A stretch of DNA of 45,913 nt from Escherichia coli. GTDB lineage: Bacteria; Pseudomonadota; Gammaproteobacteria; Enterobacterales; Enterobacteriaceae. How positions within the stretch are numbered: the stretch's first letter is position 1; the number at the start of each line of letters is the position of its first letter. Where the stretch lies: assembly GCF_003334785.1 (NCBI RefSeq), contig NZ_QOWV01000023.1. The stretch is one strand, 5' to 3'. The notes beneath the pieces were generated by a model that was not told the DNA's origin, searched no databases, and saw nothing but the letters and a program-made list of their open reading frames with translations. Position numbers and translations under genes: made by a program. Below are positions 10,534 through 36,147 of the stretch, piece by piece.

Positions 10534-11325
10534 ATGCCTGAAGGCCCGGAGATCCGCCGTGCAGCGGATAACCTGGAGGCGGCGATCAAAGGCAAACCAC
10601 TAACTGATGTCTGGTTTGCCTTCCCGCAGTTAAAACCTTATCAATCACAACTTATCGGTCAACACGTTACCCATGTGGAAACGCGTGGTAAGGCGTTGTT
10701 AACTCATTTTTCCAACGACTTAACGCTCTACAGCCATAATCAGCTTTACGGCGTCTGGCGCGTGGTTGATACCGGCGAAGAGCCGCAGACCACGCGAGTA
10801 TTGCGGGTAAAACTGCAAACGGCTGACAAAACCATTCTGCTTTATAGCGCCTCGGATATTGAGATGTTGACCCCGGAACAACTGACCACGCATCCGTTTT
10901 TACAACGCGTTGGTCCCGATGTGCTGGATCCGAATCTGACGCCGGAGGTGGTGAAAGAACGATTATTGTCGCCGCGCTTTCGTAACTGTCAGTTTGCTGG
11001 ATTACTGCTCGATCAGGCGTTTCTGGCTGGGCTTGGCAATTATTTGCGGGTGGAGATCCTCTGGCAGGTTGGGTTGACTGGAAATCATAAAGCGAAAGAT
11101 CTCAATGCGGCGCAACTGGATGCACTCGCACACGCGTTACTGGAGATTCCTCGATTTTCCTACGCTACGCGGGGGCAGGTGGATGAGAATAAGCATCATG
11201 GGGCGCTGTTTCGCTTTAAGGTTTTTCATCGAGATGGCGAACCGTGCGAACGTTGTGGCAGCATCATTGAGAAAACCACGCTGTCATCTCGCCCGTTTTA
11301 CTGGTGCCCTGGCTGCCAGCACTAG
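10534..11325 (+). CDS. nei: Endonuclease VIII (Fpg/Nei family DNA glycosylase/AP lyase)
   Basis: 263-aa ORF starting MPEGPEIRR (N-terminal catalytic Pro after Met) and ending in a zinc-finger CxxC...CxxC motif. Confidence 0.95.
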
Positions 11326-12368
11326 GCCGACCGCTTCGGCGCATAGGTTGAAATAAACCGCGCAATGGCAGGCCCTGTCAGCAAAATACTGAACAGGCGT
11401 AGGGTTTGCATCGCCATAATGAGCGCCATATCGGCATTGCTCCCTGCGGCGATGACCGCCACGGTATCAAGCCCGCCGGGGCTGGTGGCGAGGTAGGCAG
11501 TCATAAAATCAATGTGCATAAACCGGGTCAGCCCCCACGCCATACCCGCACAAATAGCCAGCAGAGCAAAAATCGACAGCAGGATTTGCGGTAGCGGGCG
11601 TAGTGCCCGCAGTAAGATTTGTTTATCGAAACCAAGACCAATCCGCCAGCCAATTGCCATATACGCCATCGCCAGCAGCCATTCCGGTAGTTCGATGGTG
11701 ATGAGCTGACCAGACTGGAGCACTGCGCCCGCCAGCATCGGGATGAGCATCGTGCCGGAAGGAAGACGCAGCAGGCATCCCACTGTACCGGCAACGACCG
11801 CGAGCAAAATAGTAAGCAGGAGATTAATGCTCACTGGCGGGAACCAGACGATATGCTGGTTAACCGCTTCAGCGTTATCGCCCAGCATCATGCGGGTGAC
11901 CAGAACAGCGGCCCCCGCGACGAACAGCACTCGCAGATATTGCATAAACGCCACCAGGCGAATATCTGCGCCGTAATCTTGCGCCATAGCGACCATTGCC
12001 GCCGCGCCGCCAGGAGAGGAGCCCCAGGCACCGGTATTTCCAGGCAATGAGCTATAGCGCACCAATAACCAACCCACAATGGCGCTGGAAAGCAGCGTTA
12101 CCAGTAAAATTGCAAGCACGATCGGCCAGTTGACGGCCAGGGTGGTGAGAATCGAACCAGTGAGGTTTTGCGCAATCATGCAGCCAAGAATGGCCTGGGC
12201 GGCGAGAAAAGCAGAGCGGGGAAGTTGCAGAGTAATTCCGCGCATACTAAAGATGATCCCGGCGATCATCGGCCCAAGTAATAGCGCCGCCGGGAGATGT
12301 ACCGCGAGGAAACCAATAGAAAGGAGAAGTGATAGCACACATAACATTCCCCACTGCAAAACTGGCAT
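11322..12368 (-). CDS. abrB: AbrB-family inner-membrane protein (putative regulator/transporter)
   Basis: Six-frame ORF extends to 12446, but the ATG at 12368-12366 has GGAG 8 nt upstream and gives a 348-aa product; highly hydrophobic. Confidence 0.8.
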
Positions 12369-12519
12369 CCTTCGCTCCCTCATTATTTTCTCTTTGGTGT
12401 ATCGATACAGCATAAAGAAAGCTGGGCCAGGAAAAAATAACAGCAATCAAGGAAAAGGGGAAAATCAGCAATTTTCTGAAAGAGATGCCCTTTCCGGCGG
12501 CAAAGGGCATCATGGTAAA

Positions 12520-13581
12520 TCAGTTATAGTTAATCTTAAAAAGCACCACTGTATCGAAGGGGCCAGCCTCGATGGGGGTGCCTGGAATGGACGAAAGTTC
12601 AGCCGTATAGGTTTTTTCGTAGACCAACATGTCACTGGTGAAATCGGCGTATTCAGCATATTTATTGAAGGTATAAGGCGAGGCGTTTTCATCCAGTAAA
12701 CGTAGCTTCAGACCATTACCAATCAACAATGCTTTATCTTCTTCAACCAACGTTTCTTCGGTATAAAAGGAGGAACTGACTTTAAATCCGTCGGTGCATT
12801 GATCGTTTTGGCTCTTGGTCGTTTTAATACTGAACGTTTTCGACATTGTGTGGCGACGTATATCCAGCAAATTAAATTTACCAAAATCAATCACCTGTGT
12901 TTCCGGTGAAATGGAAAAATTGACGCTGCAATCCAGCACGCGAATGTTTTCCAGACCAGTAATATGATATTTCAGGTTTTGGGCAGTAGGGTCTTCGTTA
13001 ACGCTACCGGCACCGTCAAATTGCACGACGATATAGTCGCTAAGCGTACTTTGATAATCATGCGGCGGCATTTCTCGTATTTTGACGTATAACCGCATGC
13101 GAGCGAGAAAGGTACGCGACATATGAATATTAGCGGGATCGCCCGAGCAAATTTTGTTCTGCCATCCCATCGCGATGATCTGCTCAGGGGTATAAATATC
13201 AATGTTCTTACTGTCGATACACTGGTTAGTGTCGATGCGACTTTTTCCCAGACTGGCATCGTAATCGACACCGTTGTATGTCACGCCGAGTTGATAATAA
13301 CGATCCTGCACCCCCGGATAGGGGTTTACCCAGGCGTAGACATGCTCGCTTTCAAAGTTGCCGTTGGTATTGTTGTCACAATAGACGGGAATTTTAATAT
13401 CGTCAGATTCCCAGATCTTATCACCGGGTTTGGCATTGCCTGGTACAGCAAACGGTTGAATCGCTTCTGATTTTTCTACTGCGCCACCAGATGTACCAAA
13501 ATAGCAGTTCAGCGCCATTGCAGACTTCAACGGCAGAAATAACAGGCAGATGACGAGCAACAATCCCTTGCCAGCACTCAT
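12520..13581 (-). CDS. ybgO: Putative fimbrial adhesin/minor subunit of the ybg chaperone-usher system
   Basis: Start chosen at ATG 13581 (GGAGG 5 nt upstream; overlaps ybgP stop as ATGA); signal-peptide N-terminus; last gene of the operon. Confidence 0.8.
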
Positions 13582-14306
13582 TTCGCCTCCACTGCTTGTA
13601 AACGGCATTGTCCGCTGCAGTTGAGCGTCGTCATGCGTAATGCGCCGTAATCATCCATGTAACCGAGATAAAACTGGCTGCCGCTATAACTTCCGGTGTT
13701 TGTGTTGACCGTACTAAAAGGTGCAACCATCACGGTTTTGAAGCCTGGGAGAACGCCTTTTTCATTTCTCCCCAGATAGGCAATGGTCAGATAATACGCG
13801 GTAGGATTTTTCAGTGTCAGTTGGTTGCCCTGCTGGCTGACCTGTAACTGCAGTTCGACCTTTTCTCCTGCTTTCTTGCGTAATGCAGCCGGTCGCCAGA
13901 ACAATTTAATACGACTTTGAATAGCGACCTGAAGTATCGCATGGTCGCTGCTTTTATCCGGAGCGGGAGGAATTTCGCGCATATTGTAGAAAAATAGCGT
14001 TTCGCGATCGCCAGGTAATTGTGTGGTTGAGGCTTGTTTCACAACCCGCACCTGCGATGTCGCTTTCGGTTCCAGACGTTGAATAGGGGGCAAAGCGACC
14101 AGAAGAGCATCGCTTTTCTCCCCTTTTTCATTTTCTATCCAGGAATAAGCAAGATAAGGCAGTTTGTCACTTTGGTTTTCGATACGCAGGCTGGTGGCTT
14201 TGTCATTGGCGTTAAACACAATGCGTGTGCGATCGGGTTGCACCGCAGCATTGCAACCCAAGCTGATGGTTAACAACATTAAGGGTAATCCTTTAATAAA
14301 TGTCAT
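13578..14306 (-). CDS. ybgP: Periplasmic fimbrial chaperone (PapD-like)
   Basis: 242-aa product from ATG 14306; signal peptide; PapD-like chaperone sequence features. Confidence 0.85.
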
Positions 14307-14320
14307 TCTCTTTTCCTTAA

Positions 14321-16777
14321 TTAATGACAAGGTAAAATCAGGCGTTTGGTCGTGTCTTCCAGACGTTCTGGCAGATGAATAATGCAGCTTTGCTCACCCC
14401 AGACCACGGTAAACAGTTGATTTTCAGCGACACCGCTTAACCAGGCATGTCCTTCCTCGCCAACCATACCCACGCTAATGCCGCTGTCATCCTGGCGGAT
14501 ATCCGCACCGAGGGGAGGGAACTGACCGCTGGCGTTGCGTATGATGACGTTAACGTCTTTACCGGAACGGGAAGCCAGTGATTTGTAACCTATCGCGCCT
14601 TCAATCCATGTTTCCTTGATGACGTTTTCTGCAACTGTTACGCCGTCGGGTAAGTCATTCATGTTCACCGCCACGGTGGAAGGCTGGTAACTGGAAATCA
14701 ACGGCACCACCGCAATGCCAAAATGGTTGGTGTAGTCGAGATTGCCCTGAACCGGAATATCTGCCACGCCATCGGTGCTGACCATCAGGCGTGGTTCATT
14801 GGTGGAGCTGCGGCGATGAAATGCTGCACCATATTGGGTTGCGGTGAAAGAACCGCTCCAGCTGCTGCTGACGGAACTGTAATCACTGGCGGCATAGGTA
14901 CCAGAAATATCCCACTCACCCGCTGAACTCAGGTGCTGATAGTTACCGCTCACCTGGGCTCCATTGTCCGGACGATCGGATTGCAGTCCGGCAGACATGC
15001 CCCAGCTATTACGTTCATCCAGCGTATCGTTCCACGACATGCGGTGTATGGTGCTGTGGCTACTGTTTTGCATGTCATAGCCAACCCGACCACCGTTACC
15101 GAAGGGGAGCGAAATCGACAGATAAATCTGGTTGTCGCGATCTTTATCTTCGTAGTGGGTCGTATTGAATGACGTCGAAATCGAGATATCTCTCCAGTCA
15201 CCAATATCAACATTAAAACCTGCTGTGATGTTGGCGGTCGTGGAGGCGTCTGCATTCCACCAGGTTTGATGTAGCAGGTTGGCGTAAAGATTGAGGTTTA
15301 GTGGGGTAATCGGTTGGCCCACGGATAAGCTGATCGTCTGTTTTTCGTCCTGCGCATCGCTGTCGTTGTATTTGTGATCCAGATAGTTGGCGTAGCTGTG
15401 AAAATGACGATCTGAGAAGCGATAAGCGGCGAGCGAAATCGTGCTGTTGGTGGCATCCACTTGTTTGCTGTAATTAAAACGGTAGCTTAAGCCCCGCTCG
15501 TCCTGCTGAGTATCAAAATGGCTACTGGCCCAGGTGACATCAAAGGACAGTGCGCCAAGCCACAGCATATTTTGCCCGATACCCATTGCGGCAGAATGGT
15601 AGTCATCATCAGAAATCAGCAGGCCGCCGTACAGCGAGGTGTTTGAGAGCATCCCCCAGGAAACTTCATTGCTAAAAAAGGTTTCATTTTCAGTTTGATG
15701 TGACATGGAAGGCCGTGGCTGACCCGCGGCCAATTTATAGCGAACCTGTCCCTGGCGAGTCAGGAAGGGCGTCGATGCTGCCGAAACCTGGAAATTGTTC
15801 ACCCGACCATCTTCTTCCGTCACTTTGACATCCAGCGTGCCCTGAACAGACTGATTGAGGTCATCAATAATAAACGGGCCTGGCGGGACTTTTTTCTGGT
15901 AAATGACGCGGCCTGATTGACTGATCGTCACCGTGGCATTGGTCTGTGCAATACCGCTAATTTGTGGGGCGTAGCCACGCAGCTCCCACGGTAACATTCG
16001 ATCGTCACTCGCCAGTGCCGCGCCGGTATAAGAAAAACCATCGAAAATATTGGAACTGAAATCGGTTTCGCCGAGGGTTAACTTAGAGCCTAATTGCGGT
16101 AATGGACGAAAAAGATAGGTGCGCGATATTCCGCCTGACTGGTCATGGTTATCTTCGCTATCGGTCTTATTAAGCTGGTAATCACTGCGTAAGCGCCATG
16201 CCCCGGCGTTAATTCCGGCGGTACCGTAGGCATTCAGGTTAGTGCTGCTGCTGCCGTCCTGTGGGCGGTAGCTGCTGGCAAACAAGTTGTAATCCATCAG
16301 GACACCGGCAACACCTTCTTTCCATGTAGAGGGGGGAGCCCAGTTTTCTGAGTGCCACGCCAGCCAGGCTTGCGGAATACTAATATTCAGTTGCTGATTG
16401 GCTTGATCGAAATTGAAGAGCATTTCAGGTCGGGAACTGAAATCAATACACCGATCTATCTGTGGCAAGGACTGACGGATATCTGGTTTTAAACCAAATT
16501 TATCGACCAGTGAATCATTGATGCATGGAATGGTTTTGTCACCCTTTTTTTGCCAGTTAATTTTTTGCCCATTACTGATTTTGTTGTTATTCACCGCAAC
16601 GCTAACAAAATATTCACCGGGAGCAATGACTCCTTTTTCCTTTAATAATGAAATATCAATGCGGTCGCGCATTGATTTATCGAGAACATTCAGATTGAAT
16701 TCGACCGCCATTGCGCAAGGCATCGCCATGACCAGGCAGGATACAAAAGAGAGTCGATAAATATTCACGGTGTCCAT
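14321..16777 (-). CDS. ybgQ: Outer-membrane fimbrial usher (PapC/FimD family)
   Basis: ~818-aa product from ATG 16777 (ORF track extends to 16819); size and sequence typical of ushers. Confidence 0.85.
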   Translation of the reverse strand: MDTVNIYRLSFVSCLVMAMPCAMAVEFNLNVLDKSMRDRIDISLLKEKGVIAPGEYFVSVAVNNNKISNGQKINWQKKGDKTIPCINDSLVDKFGLKPDIRQSLPQIDRCIDFSSRPEMLFNFDQANQQLNISIPQAWLAWHSENWAPPSTWKEGVAGVLMDYNLFASSYRPQDGSSSTNLNAYGTAGINAGAWRLRSDYQLNKTDSEDNHDQSGGISRTYLFRPLPQLGSKLTLGETDFSSNIFDGFSYTGAALASDDRMLPWELRGYAPQISGIAQTNATVTISQSGRVIYQKKVPPGPFIIDDLNQSVQGTLDVKVTEEDGRVNNFQVSAASTPFLTRQGQVRYKLAAGQPRPSMSHQTENETFFSNEVSWGMLSNTSLYGGLLISDDDYHSAAMGIGQNMLWLGALSFDVTWASSHFDTQQDERGLSYRFNYSKQVDATNSTISLAAYRFSDRHFHSYANYLDHKYNDSDAQDEKQTISLSVGQPITPLNLNLYANLLHQTWWNADASTTANITAGFNVDIGDWRDISISTSFNTTHYEDKDRDNQIYLSISLPFGNGGRVGYDMQNSSHSTIHRMSWNDTLDERNSWGMSAGLQSDRPDNGAQVSGNYQHLSSAGEWDISGTYAASDYSSVSSSWSGSFTATQYGAAFHRRSSTNEPRLMVSTDGVADIPVQGNLDYTNHFGIAVVPLISSYQPSTVAVNMNDLPDGVTVAENVIKETWIEGAIGYKSLASRSGKDVNVIIRNASGQFPPLGADIRQDDSGISVGMVGEEGHAWLSGVAENQLFTVVWGEQSCIIHLPERLEDTTKRLILPCH

Positions 16778-16827
16778 ACCTGATAAATATTTTATGAAAG
16801 GCGGCGATGATGCCGCCAAAATAATAC

Positions 16828-17394
16828 TTATTTATAATCCAGCACGTAGGTTGCGTTAGCGGTTACTTCACCTGCCGTGACATCGACTGCATTATCAATT
16901 TGTTCCATCCAGGCGAAAAAGTTCAGCGTCTGTTCTGATGAGCTTGCATCCAGGTCAAGATCTGGCGCGGCTGAACCTAATACGATGTTACCGTCATTTT
17001 TGTCCATCAGTCGTACACCGATCCCAGTTGCTTCGCCTGCACTGGTGTTGCTCAACAAAGGCGTAGCACCAGTTGTCTTAGCCGTGCTATCGAAGGTTAC
17101 GCCAACTTTGGATACCGGCATTCCGCTACCGTTGTCAGAAGCAGGCAGATCACAGTTGATCAAGCGAATGTCGACGGCCACTTTATTGCTATGATGCTCC
17201 CGGTTTATATGGGTTGTCGTGACTTGTCCAAGATCTATGTTTTTATCAATATCTTCTGGATGAATTTCACAAGGTGCTTCAATAACCTCCCCCTTAAAGT
17301 GAATTTCGCCAGAACCTTCATCAGCAGCATAAACAGGTGCAGTGAACAGCAGAGATACGGCCAGTGCGGCCAATGTTTTTTGTCCTTTAAACAT
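16828..17394 (-). CDS. ybgD: Fimbrial major subunit (type 1 pilin-like)
   Basis: 188-aa ORF with signal peptide and pilin-like Cys pair; first gene of ybgDQPO. Confidence 0.88.
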   Translation of the reverse strand: MFKGQKTLAALAVSLLFTAPVYAADEGSGEIHFKGEVIEAPCEIHPEDIDKNIDLGQVTTTHINREHHSNKVAVDIRLINCDLPASDNGSGMPVSKVGVTFDSTAKTTGATPLLSNTSAGEATGIGVRLMDKNDGNIVLGSAAPDLDLDASSSEQTLNFFAWMEQIDNAVDVTAGEVTANATYVLDYK

Positions 17395-17721
17395 AACAGA
17401 GTCCTTTAAGGATATAGAATAGGGGTATAGCTACGCCAGAATATCGTATTTGATTATTGCTAGTTTTTAGTTTTGCTTAAAAATATTGTTAGTTTTATTA
17501 AATGCAAAACTAAAGTATTGGTATCATGAATTTGTTGTATGATGAATAAAATATAGGGGGGTATAGATAGACGTCATTTTCATAGGGTTATAAATGCGAC
17601 TACCATGAAGTTTTTAATTGAAAGTATTGGGTTGCTGATAATTTGAGCTGTTCTATTCTTTTTAAATATCTATATAGGTCTGTTAATGGATTTTATTTTT
17701 ACAATTTTTTGTGTTTAGGCA

Positions 17722-17755
17722 TATAAAAATCAACCCGCCATATGAACGGCGGGTT
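17722..17755 (-). terminator. Intrinsic terminator of gltA
   Basis: Hairpin AACCCGCC/GGCGGGTT (17733-17740 with 17748-17755), followed on the minus strand by a T-rich run (plus-strand ATAAAAAT at 17722-17730), just after the gltA stop. Confidence 0.6.
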
Positions 17756-17783
17756 AAAATATTTACAACTTAGCAATCAACCA

Positions 17784-19067
17784 TTAACGCTTGATATCGC
17801 TTTTAAAGTCGCGTTTTTCATATCCTGTATACAGCTGACGCGGACGGGCAATCTTCATACCGTCACTGTGCATTTCGCTCCAGTGGGCGATCCAGCCAAC
17901 GGTACGTGCCATTGCGAAAATGACGGTGAACATGGAAGACGGAATACCCATCGCTTTCAGGATGATACCAGAGTAGAAATCGACGTTCGGGTACAGTTTC
18001 TTCTCGATAAAGTACGGGTCGTTCAGCGCGATGTTTTCCAGCTCCATAGCCACTTCCAGCAGGTCATCCTTCGTGCCCAGCTCTTTCAGCACTTCATGGC
18101 AGGTTTCACGCATTACGGTGGCGCGCGGGTCGTAATTTTTGTACACGCGGTGACCGAAGCCCATCAGGCGGAAAGAATCATTTTTGTCTTTCGCACGACG
18201 AACAAATTCCGGAATGTGTTTAACGGAGCTGATTTCTTCCAGCATTTTCAGCGCCGCTTCGTTAGCACCGCCGTGCGCAGGTCCCCACAGTGAAGCAATA
18301 CCTGCTGCGATACAGGCAAACGGGTTCGCACCCGAAGAGCCAGCGGTACGCACGGTGGAGGTAGAGGCGTTCTGTTCATGGTCAGCGTGCAGGATCAGAA
18401 TACGGTCCATAGCACGTTCCAGAATCGGATTAACTTCATACGGTTCGCACGGCGTGGAGAACATCATATTCAGGAAGTTACCGGCGTAGGAGAGATCGTT
18501 GCGCGGGTAAACAAATGGCTGACCAATGGAATACTTGTAACACATCGCGGCCATGGTCGGCATTTTCGACAGCAGGCGGAACGCGGCAATTTCACGGTGA
18601 CGAGGATTGTTAACATCCAGCGAGTCGTGATAGAACGCCGCCAGCGCGCCGGTAATACCACACATGACTGCCATTGGATGCGAGTCGCGACGGAAAGCAT
18701 GGAACAGACGGGTAATCTGCTCGTGGATCATGGTATGACGGGTCACCGTAGTTTTAAATTCGTCATACTGTTCCTGAGTCGGTTTTTCACCATTCAGCAG
18801 GATGTAACAAACTTCCAGGTAGTTAGAATCGGTCGCCAGCTGATCGATCGGGAAACCGCGGTGCAGCAAAATACCTTCATCACCATCAATAAAAGTAATT
18901 TTAGATTCGCAGGATGCGGTTGAAGTGAAGCCTGGGTCAAAGGTGAACACACCTTTTGAACCGAGAGTACGGATATCAATAACATCTTGACCCAGCGTGC
19001 CTTTCAGCACATCCAGTTCAACAGCTGTATCCCCGTTGAGGGTGAGTTTTGCTTTTGTATCAGCCAT
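17784..19067 (-). CDS. gltA: Citrate synthase (type II, hexameric)
   Basis: 427-aa ORF recognised as citrate synthase ([13 protein letters not shown]...). Confidence 0.97.
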
Positions 19068-19775
19068 TTAAGGTCTCCTTAGCGCCTTATTGCGTAAGAC
19101 TGCCGGAACTTAAATTTGCCTTCGCACATCAACCTGGCTTTACCCGTTTTTTATTTGGCTCGCCGCTCTGTGAAAGAGGGGAAAACCTGGGTACAGAGCT
19201 CTGGGCGCTTGCAGGTAAAGGATCCATTGATGACGAATAAATGGCGAATCAAGTACTTAGCAATCCGAATTATTAAACTTGTCTACCACTAATAACTGTC
19301 CCGAATGAATTGGTCAATACTTCCACACTGTTACATAAGTTAATCTTAGGTGAAATACCGACTTCATAACTTTTACGCATTATATGCTTTTCCTGGTAAT
19401 GTTTGTAACAACTTTGTTGAATGATTGTCAAATTAGATGATTAAAAATTAAATAAATGTTGTTATCGTGACCTGGATCACTGTTCAGGATAAAACCCGAC
19501 AAACTATATGTAGGTTAATTGTAATGATTTTGTGAACAGCCTATACTGCCGCCAGGTCTCCGGAACACCCTGCAATCCCGAGCCACCCAGCGTTGTAACG
19601 TGTCGTTTTCGCATCTGGAAGCAGTGTTTTGCATGACGCGCAGTTATAGAAAGGACGCTGTCTGACCCGCAAGCAGACCGGAGGAAGGAAATCCCGACGT
19701 CTCCAGGTAACAGAAAGTTAACCTCTGTGCCCGTAGTCCCCAGGGAATAATAAGAACAGCATGTGGGCGTTATTC
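19068..19775. promoter_or_regulatory. Divergent gltA / sdhCDAB promoter-regulatory region (~0.7 kb)
   Basis: Long AT-rich intergenic spacer between divergent gltA and sdhC; individual sites were not mapped from sequence. Confidence 0.6.
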
Positions 19776-35301: not shown

Positions 35302-35799
35302 ATAGCAATCAAACCGAAGCCACATATGCGCGGCCAGATTGTTGACAAAGGGCGCTTTGTTCATGCCGGATACGGCATGAACGCTTTATTCGGTCTACAA
35401 AAGCAGGCAAATTCAATATATTGCAGAGATGATGTAGACACTGGCAAGCGTAGCGCATCAGGTAATTTTGCGTTTATCTTCACTCTCAAGCCACGTATAT
35501 GTGGCTTTATTTTTAACAAAATAATAACCCTGGGTGAGTTAATTATAATATAATTATAAGTTAACTAAATGTTAATATTGGCGGGGTGGATTTATGCCTT
35601 TATTAGTAATCCTGAAACTCTGCGTCGTATTAGCCAGTGACCAAAAAAAGAATTAAGGTCAACCGTGCTGTTTTTGCTTCGTCTCTTTTTATCTTTAATT
35701 GCCAACCGAAACTAATTTCAGCCTTATAACTCACACATTTTAAACATAAATGTCACTAAAGTTACCTTATTGAAACATGATTAACATAATTTGTAGGAA

Positions 35800-35813
35800 T
35801 TGATATTTATCAA
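35800..35813. promoter_or_regulatory. FNR-type binding site (perfect TTGAT-N4-ATCAA) upstream of cydA
   Basis: TTGATATTTATCAA read directly from the sequence. Confidence 0.6.
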
Positions 35814-35851
35814 TGTATAAGTCTTGGAAATGGGCATCAAAAAGAGATAAA

Positions 35852-35865
35852 TTGTTCTCGATCAA
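35852..35865. promoter_or_regulatory. Second FNR-type site (TTGTT-N4-ATCAA), 52 bp downstream of the first
   Basis: TTGTTCTCGATCAA; centre-to-centre spacing of 52 bp fits a tandem FNR arrangement. Confidence 0.5.
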
Positions 35866-36147
35866 ATTGGCTGAAAGGCGGTAATTTAGCTATAAATTGA
35901 TCACCGTCGAAAAATGCAAATTTGCTTCAACAAAAACCTGTTTATTGTAAGGATTTTGCGGCGTAATATATACGTGGGATCAATTTGAGTTTTTATTAAC
36001 ATGTTTGCAACCTTTCTTTACGCCGTTTTTGTGTGCATTCACATGGTATGATGAAAGTGTTCAAACAAATTTCTATTGGGGCATGCGTGTGACCCTTTCT
36101 AACGGGGTTCACTCTCGGAGTCTTCATGCGATGAGCAAGGAGTCATG

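Follow-up and report, generated by a model that had tools for sequence, protein, structure and literature searches.

The Ybg fimbriae of Escherichia coli K-12 were reportedly the subject of a functional study by Korea et al. in 2010; among related systems, the Std, Stf and Ste operons of Salmonella include extra subunits, and std carries regulator genes as well. The P (Pap) pili of uropathogenic E. coli resemble Ybg in having the usher gene before the chaperone gene and a two-domain tip adhesin. In the catalogue of Wurpel et al. 2013 (PMC3559732), Ybg is listed as core-associated, with a "not intact" locus in many strains, and PMC5216030 assigns it to the pi family and describes it as core-associated yet often disrupted. 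According to a secondary account of Korea et al. 2010 (PMC6033998), forced ybg expression raised adherence to bladder cells. Here, we examined a stretch of 45,913 nucleotides of E. coli DNA (hereafter, the window) and conclude with high confidence that its fimbrial locus is the Ybg operon ybgDQPO, a minimal Pap-like (pi-family) chaperone-usher system that is silenced by H-NS and exists as old polymorphic alleles under purifying selection. The operon was on record before, as were its family, the silencing by H-NS and the lectin-domain structure, and the finding in the window is in itself nothing new; what is added here concerns the depth of the allelic divergence, the strong purifying selection, the cassette formed by ybgD and its leader, the independent deletions, and the relatives located at the yqi site.

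The operon occupies the minus strand at 12520-17394, and the Ybg locus of K-12 (W3110 and MG1655, at 100% or near-100% identity) comprises the same four genes in the abrB-gltA interval. The sequence is K-12-like: it is 100% identical to strain VE-F10 and departs from W3110 by 3 SNPs in 11.4 kb, at positions 10987, 17022, which causes the one conservative amino-acid change in YbgD, and 17515, in the leader. All four ORFs are intact in the ORF and translation check, with none of the frameshifts or internal stops that the preliminary description had named as refuting its reading, and its complete four-gene minus-strand chaperone-usher unit stands in names, roles and operon structure, given the ORFs, the Pfam matches and the annotated K-12 ybgOPQD. 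The tight or overlapping junctions that it also described are present between ybgP and ybgO, where stop and start overlap as ATGA (13578-13581), but the ybgD-ybgQ junction is not tight because the gap there, which contains a GC hairpin, measures 50 nt; ybgQ and ybgP are separated by 14 nt.

The first gene, ybgD (16828-17394, minus strand), encodes the major pilin (188 aa; Pfam Fimbrial, 3.7e-31), which carries a signal peptide and, at its N-terminus, a donor-strand segment. YbgD aligns with PapA and with FimA, in the latter case across the GxVHFKGEV donor-strand region as well, and its C-terminus, YVLDYK, has the penultimate Tyr, so that the incomplete Ig fold, the donor strand and the Tyr of a pilin are all in place. 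The product of ybgQ (14321-16777, minus strand; 818 aa from the RefSeq start) is an outer-membrane usher with the three expected domains, PapC_N (1.9e-34), Usher (6e-189; 2-548 of 549 model positions) and PapC_C (2.6e-11), and its nearest solved relative is PapC (1.7e-155; FimD, 5e-80). The periplasmic chaperone encoded by ybgP (13578-14306, minus strand; 242 aa; PapD_N, 2.4e-34; PapD_C, 7e-14) is PapD-like, scoring 3.2e-51 against PapD versus 1e-30 against FimC, and its alignment retains the subunit-anchoring Arg (DRTR) and Lys (IKLFxRP) of PapD, as befits a chaperone of this family. The usher groups with the PapC type, and its gene stands ahead of that for the chaperone (order D-Q-P-O), which places the operon in the pi clade by score comparison rather than by a formal tree, in line with the published assignment. 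Thus, the machinery is Pap-like and not type-1-like.

Comparison of K-12 with O157:H7 yields dS values of 1.6-2.2 across the operon, which, being above the saturation level of about 1.5, are to be read as lower-bound indications only, against 0.05-0.19 in the flanking genes. The dN/dS ratio is 0.03-0.09 in all four ybg genes and 0.014-0.026 in the lectin domain of YbgO, comparable to the 0.039 of gltA, and the lectin domain retains 90.7% protein identity where the ybgO gene has 78.7% DNA identity. A decaying relic, in which a silent and unused operon is turning into a pseudogene, with the intactness in K-12 due to chance, would be hard to reconcile with such strong purifying selection at saturated dS, and we consider this explanation quite improbable. 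It does draw on the laboratory-silent, H-NS-bound state of the operon, on the "not intact in many strains" of Wurpel et al. (PMC3559732), and on patterns of loss: among 5426 complete genomes surveyed, the operon has no match in 662 and coverage below 80% in 610 more, some lineages have lost it through independent deletions, ybgO is frameshifted in O157:H16, a pseudogene occurs in Shigella, and many clusters of truncated YbgO, of about 200 aa, exist. The frameshifted and deleted copies indicate that selection is not universal. However, 4154 of the 5426 genomes keep the operon at a coverage of at least 80%, and the signature of selection speaks for a use of Ybg somewhere beyond the laboratory. 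Ancestral absence from strains with an apparently empty site was considered and rejected because the deletion scars retain the 3′ end of ybgO. Across E. coli, the locus is ancestral but polymorphic, with very old allele classes and several lineages in which it has been deleted.

The alleles of ybgD and its leader are discrete: 926 of the 5426 genomes have the K-12 type at an identity of at least 99%, 3262 show 60-80% identity, and 7 fall between. In the mosaic strain DAM, YbgO and YbgP are identical to those of K-12 and ybgQ is 98% identical in DNA, combined with a foreign ybgD and leader. On these comparisons, ybgD and its leader behave as a cassette that is exchanged independently of ybgQ, ybgP and ybgO. 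We tentatively suggest, as a possibility that we hold somewhat short of probable, that ybg is a long-lived polymorphism, either older than E. coli itself or reintroduced from sister species of Escherichia, in which the pilin and leader are swapped and a single conserved receptor is used. Under the polymorphism reading, the near-constancy of the lectin domain would point to one conserved receptor, physiologically used in the natural habitat, and swapping of the surface-exposed pilin with the H-NS-bound leader would be expected from diversifying pressure driven by immunity or phages. If this reading is correct, the Ybg fimbria would be expressed and important in vivo, and its allele classes might correlate with host or niche. 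A study with K-12 as the reference has reported GWAS hits in ybgP and ybgQ (PMC12547504); these may reflect replacement of whole alleles rather than point adaptation, and, given discrete pilin-plus-leader alleles, the same may apply to results obtained with K-12.

The spacer between ybgD and gltA (17395-17783, 389 bp) has a G+C content of 29.3%, compared with 50.6% for the window, so that the strong AT-richness noted earlier for the region upstream of ybgD is borne out. Only 0.75% of 389-bp segments have a G+C content of 31% or less, and these are confined to three places in 45.9 kb; the spacer is thus among the most AT-rich DNA of the stretch, as expected of the promoter region of an H-NS-silenced locus. 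The usable leader and promoter region extends over about 17395-17729 (minus strand; ~29% G+C) because the gltA terminator (17730-17757) takes up the far end of the spacer. In published work, the ybgD/gltA spacer is listed as a 413-bp "promoter island" whose associated genes are predicted to be foreign, with H-NS binding given "according to all studies" (PMC3661553, Table 1), the occupancy deriving from three independent ChIP-chip data sets compiled there. Upstream of ybgD, RpoD SELEX identified a "constitutive promoter", TAAACA-16-TAAAAT, flagged HNS (PMC3946193), and our consensus scan recovers the identical sigma-70 promoter-like site at 17690-17717 (minus strand). The number of promoter-like sites in the region, 9 against 10.1 expected from shuffles, shows no enrichment, so that the scan carries no weight of its own; its one informative point is the agreement with the SELEX site. 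The H-NS-silencing signature that the preliminary description read from composition is therefore backed by published occupancy (PMC3661553, PMC3946193), and silencing of ybg by H-NS is supported, with the occupancy taken from the literature.

Could the AT-rich leader instead be an ordinary promoter/terminator spacer, with the operon silent for want of a dedicated activator and not through H-NS? E. coli intergenic DNA is generally AT-rich, promoter-like sites are no more frequent than in shuffles, the gltA-ybgD interval holds no regulator-sized ORF and the operon no regulator gene, and BolA overproduction induces ybgD (PMC4337573). Nevertheless, a G+C content this low over 389 bp is rare in the window, it is conserved at 27-33% in all alleles and orthologues even though E. 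coli leaders are just 42-65% identical to that of K-12, and H-NS is located there by the three ChIP-chip sets, so that we rate the ordinary-spacer explanation as slightly more improbable than decay. The epithet "cryptic" applied to these fimbriae at the outset accordingly fits in the sense of silent and H-NS-bound, as described in the literature, but not in the sense of decaying, given the low dN/dS, and "cryptic" fimbriae are not to be taken for junk. A Pap-type Dam/Lrp phase switch was also considered and rejected, there being no GATC sites in the K-12 leader or in the other E. coli alleles and no papI/papB-like regulator genes. An Rfam scan of 12200-19500 at E-values up to 1 returned no RNA families, which speaks for the absence of known riboswitches or sRNAs from the leader. 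The leader also contains two-copy direct repeats of 10-14 nt, GGGGTATAG(C/A)TA and AAAGTATTGG, which, in AT-rich DNA, are possible chance matches.

Three stem-loops mark the transcription unit. Just 3′ of ybgD, a GC-rich stem-loop, GGCGGC-AUCAUC-GCCGCC (16800-16817, minus strand), folds at -13.1 kcal/mol on its own, and the 61-nt segment around it (16775-16835) at -16 kcal/mol (z = -4.0), a value equalled by 0 of 200 shuffles. Each of the 9 alleles and orthologues compared has a stem-loop at this position, with differing sequence. The one in the window has no strong T-tract; by analogy with other fimbrial operons, it might act as an attenuator or as a 3′-end stabiliser that favours pilin over usher output. 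A terminator-like hairpin 3′ of the ybgO stop (12484-12511, minus strand), contained in a 66-nt segment (12460-12525) that folds at -19.8 kcal/mol (z = -3.4), is the probable end of the operon, an assignment made by inference because the T-tract is weak (UCUUUC). The gltA intrinsic terminator (17730-17757, minus strand) consists of a 12-bp stem, 6 pairs of which are GC, and a TTTTTAT tract behind it; the 71-nt segment around it (17720-17790) has a folding energy of -22.7 kcal/mol (z = -3.8). By its structure, this terminator is predicted to insulate ybg from transcription of the citrate synthase gene; read-through from gltA as the source of ybg transcription was rejected in view of its strength.

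The last gene, ybgO (12520-13581, minus strand), encodes a two-domain tip adhesin of 353 aa, with a lectin domain at aa 24-217 (nt 12931-13512) and a pilin domain at aa 218-353 (nt 12523-12930). This is the layout of FimH, PapG and LpfD, an N-terminal beta-sandwich, where a pilin would have its donor strand, joined to a C-terminal pilin domain. Pfam recognizes only the Fimbrial family, at residues 218-353 (5e-5), with no family matched at residues 24-217, and NCBIfam returned no family for the protein. The lectin domain does not qualify as PapG-type in our test; it has an adhesin-type lectin fold, and its crystal structures are available in the PDB (9rx0, 9rww; residues 24-217), with no ligand given in the entry data at hand. 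Its residues W57-E58-S59-x-D61 and F188-D189-G190 are invariant. In the searchable papers, we found no publication that names a receptor, and literature searches for the papers behind 9rx0, 9rww, 9rwu, 9rwv and 9rwe gave nothing relevant, so that the earlier remark that the receptor specificity is unknown still fits those papers, though structures now exist. That YbgO is only a large minor subunit initiating assembly, with adhesion carried by the YbgD shaft, as in K88 and K99 fimbriae, where the major subunit is the adhesin, would accommodate the lack of a published receptor and of a family match for residues 24-217, but is the least probable of the explanations considered.

From what is known of the family, the four proteins would all be exported via Sec, and, in the periplasm, donor-strand complementation would allow YbgP to take up YbgD and YbgO. 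YbgQ would form the outer-membrane pore and polymerise the subunits by donor-strand exchange, with YbgO entering first and occupying the tip, where its lectin domain would bind the receptor. The C-terminal pilin domain of YbgO would be completed by the N-terminal strand of YbgD, and YbgD would then make the shaft. Transcription would start past the gltA terminator, within the AT-rich leader, with H-NS across the leader presumably keeping ybg off in laboratory culture, and the conserved post-ybgD hairpin probably raising the ratio of pilin to machinery.

Among the known systems, the P pili provide the closest solved chaperone and usher, PapD and PapC (3e-51 and 1.7e-155, respectively). The best NCBIfam matches of the usher are of the StdB/Stf/Ste type (StdB, 1.2e-192), and those of the chaperone are SteC, StfD and StdC; however, the scores are far under the equivalog cut-offs (e.g., 642 versus 1289 bits), so that Std, Stf and Ste of Salmonella are relatives of Ybg and not its orthologues. 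A paralogous system of the pi family, Yqi (ExPEC adhesin I; ygiL-yqiGHI), lies at the zupT-ribB locus of E. coli and has the same pilin-usher-chaperone-adhesin layout, a two-domain adhesin of about 350 aa, and an AT-rich leader and post-pilin hairpin like those of Ybg, but it occupies another chromosomal site and its proteins are just 40-44% identical to those of Ybg. The closest relatives outside Escherichia are also located at the yqi (ribB) locus, where operons of Enterobacter, Salmonella and Citrobacter are nearer to Ybg, with 46-52% identity in the pilin and 51-66% in the other three proteins, than is the Yqi system of E. coli.

The ybg fimbrial operon is already known and is no surprise to the specialist; the modest addition made here is the pattern of selection and mosaic alleles, which argues against equating "cryptic" with "non-functional". 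The stretch belongs to an E. coli K-12-like chromosome: across positions 12400-17800, strain VE-F10 is 100% identical and W3110 essentially identical, with 3 single-base differences from K-12 W3110 over 11.4 kb, at 10987, at 17022 (a conservative change in YbgD) and at 17515 (in the ybgD leader). Given these differences and the exact VE-F10 match, the source is K-12-like rather than the reference K-12. RefSeq places abrB, ybgO, ybgP, ybgQ, ybgD and gltA on the minus strand, and the window's open reading frames concur. The frames of ybgO (12520-13581), ybgP (13578-14306), ybgQ (14321-16777) and ybgD (16828-17394), all on the minus strand, are uninterrupted, and the Pfam domains agree with the roles assigned in the preliminary description of a four-gene chaperone-usher unit: a Fimbrial domain in the pilin YbgD (3.7e-31), PapC_N, Usher and PapC_C in YbgQ, PapD_N and PapD_C in YbgP, and, in YbgO, a Fimbrial domain confined to residues 218-353, residues 24-217 having no Pfam family match. 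The ATGA overlap of ybgP and ybgO at 13578-13581 is present as claimed, 14 nt separate ybgQ from ybgP and 50 nt ybgD from ybgQ, and Shine-Dalgarno motifs precede ybgD (AAAGGA), ybgP (AAGGAA) and ybgO (GGAGG). The earlier observation is confirmed and its interpretation supported.

A GC hairpin lies directly 3′ of ybgD (16800-16817, minus strand; fold z = -4.0). A stem-loop of differing sequence occupies the same place in 9/9 alleles and orthologues examined, namely, the window and comparison loci L002, L005, L007, L009-L012 and L014, which represent E. coli alleles, Enterobacter, Salmonella, Citrobacter and E. coli Yqi. This conservation of position suggests an attenuator or mRNA-stabilising role and, by analogy with other fimbrial operons, we infer that the hairpin would bias output toward the pilin. 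A second hairpin, 3′ of ybgO (12484-12511, minus strand), probably ends the operon.

The AT-rich region described upstream of ybgD is borne out by a G+C content of 29.3% in the ybgD-gltA spacer vs 50.6% in the whole window, making it one of only three such islands within 45.9 kb. A strong intrinsic terminator follows gltA (17757-17730, minus strand), so a separate promoter for the operon is required between about 17395 and 17729. Our consensus scan found a promoter-like site, TAAACA-16-TAAAAT (17717-17690, minus strand), although the count of such sites was not above shuffled expectation, so that the scan alone carries little weight; the site is, however, exactly the RpoD genomic-SELEX promoter given for ybgD and flagged HNS (PMC3946193). 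The spacer is also a 413-bp "promoter island", linked to genes of predicted horizontal origin and occupied by H-NS in all compiled ChIP-chip studies (PMC3661553). The proposed H-NS silencing thus finds support in both published occupancy and the flagged promoter. A Pap-type methylation switch is excluded, since the leader contains no GATC sites, no regulator ORF and no Rfam match. Short direct repeats in the leader, GGGGTATAG(C/A)TA at 17422-17433 and 17558-17569 and AAAGTATTGG at 17512-17521 and 17621-17630, may be recognised by proteins or may have arisen by chance in such an AT-rich sequence. Elsewhere, 958-1700 and 35407-36104, the window's only other stretches with G+C of about 33% or lower over 389 bp, may be further H-NS-type islands.

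Ybg has been described as "core-associated", frequently not intact, and found chiefly in commensal and diarrhoeagenic strains (Wurpel et al., PMC3559732). Its expression raised bladder-cell adherence, according to Korea et al. 2010 as cited in PMC6033998; ybg expression is higher in HUS-associated STEC (PMC6033998), and ybgD is induced by BolA overproduction (PMC4337573).

Among 5426 complete E. coli genomes, the locus was matched in 4764 and at least 80% covered in 4154, with identities far below core-gene levels (at least 99%, n=925; 90-95%, n=2202; 80-90%, n=1175; 60-80%, n=412). Between K-12 and O157:H7, DNA identity is 74-79% for the four ybg genes vs 97-98% for nei and gltA. By the Nei-Gojobori method, the ybg genes show saturated dS (1.6-2.2) and dN/dS of 0.036-0.086, and the flanking genes dS of 0.055-0.19 and dN/dS of 0.04-0.18. 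In the YbgO lectin domain (residues 24-217), dN/dS is 0.014-0.026 (dS not applicable), and protein identity is 90.7% where ybgO DNA identity is 78.7%; the E. marmotae protein is nearer to K-12 YbgO (90.9%) than the O157:H7 allele is (87.8%).

The ybgD gene and its leader behave as a separate unit. In strain DAM, YbgO and YbgP are identical to those of K-12 and ybgQ DNA is 98% identical, with ybgD at 74.6% and the leader at 64.5%; across all genomes, ybgD-plus-leader identity is bimodal (at least 99%, n=926; 80-99%, n=7; 60-80%, n=3262). "Empty" ybg sites are deletions: in strain WB61 (L004, 5970-6237) the final ~45 bp of ybgO survive, fused to the region of the gltA terminator, and in ECO21 (L003, 8121-8641) the final ~393 bp. 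These differing scars, each joined near the gltA terminator, indicate independent losses.

Beside the operon, K-12 and O157:H7 share 87-93% identity in the 3′ end of abrB (~12000-12400, with the abrB-ybgO spacer); dS there is 0.19-0.24 vs 0.05-0.11 in nei and gltA, and this end appears to have hitchhiked with the divergent ybg allele. Among the four strains compared, the divergent intergenic region between gltA and sdhC (~19068-19760) shows 99.3-100% identity, above the synonymous sites of neighbouring genes; a 35-aa RefSeq hypothetical protein, WP_001305582.1 (19273-19380, minus strand), is unchanged in every strain seen.

The preliminary description had called for structure prediction of the lectin domain and a synteny survey, and both were run. 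The YbgO AlphaFold model (40 homologues as input; mean pLDDT 87.9) has two beta-rich domains, and its Foldseek matches are the two-domain adhesins FimH, LpfD, CupB6 and PapG. Structure matches of the YbgO domain to LpfD (8.1), Abp1D (7.7), MrkD (7.3), UclD (7.2), GafD (7.1), FimH (6.9) and PapG-II (5.5), at 8-16% sequence identity, show it to be an adhesin-type beta-sandwich in a sequence family of its own. PDB entries 9rx0 and 9rww span YbgO residues 24-217 with five substitutions, and 9rwu/9rwv (E 7.7e-34) and 9rwe (E 6.1e-23) are paralogous lectin domains; the structure library searched, which ends in April 2026, lacks all five. Our literature search found no citing paper for these entries and no publication naming a YbgO receptor.

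The nearest homologues beyond Escherichia, in Enterobacter, Salmonella and Citrobacter (adhesin ~60% identical), adjoin ribB, where E. coli has its yqi operon. In one Enterobacteriaceae contig from a metagenome, an operon of 74% identity is flanked by gltA and nei, and abrB is absent. Taken together, the survey suggests that placement at gltA is confined to Escherichia and close kin. Identity between the Yqi proteins of E. coli and Ybg is only 40-44%, and the ribB-site operons of the other genera (Enterobacter L008/L009, Salmonella L011, Citrobacter L014) resemble E. coli Ybg more closely than they do the Yqi of E. coli (L010). Either Ybg moved from the ribB locus to the gltA site, or a distant allele replaced E. 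coli Yqi.

The top NCBIfam matches are Salmonella Std, Stf and Ste ushers and chaperones, every one below the equivalog cut-off. Among solved structures, the nearest relative of YbgP is PapD (3.2e-51, vs ~1e-30 for FimC), whose subunit-anchoring Arg and Lys are retained, and that of YbgQ is PapC (1.7e-155, vs 5e-80 for FimD). As in pap, the usher gene stands before the chaperone gene; these affinities and the gene order fit the pi-family assignment already published for ybg (PMC5216030). Unlike pap, however, ybg has a single pilin and a single adhesin. Its pattern of selection and mosaicism resembles that known for other fimbrial major subunits.
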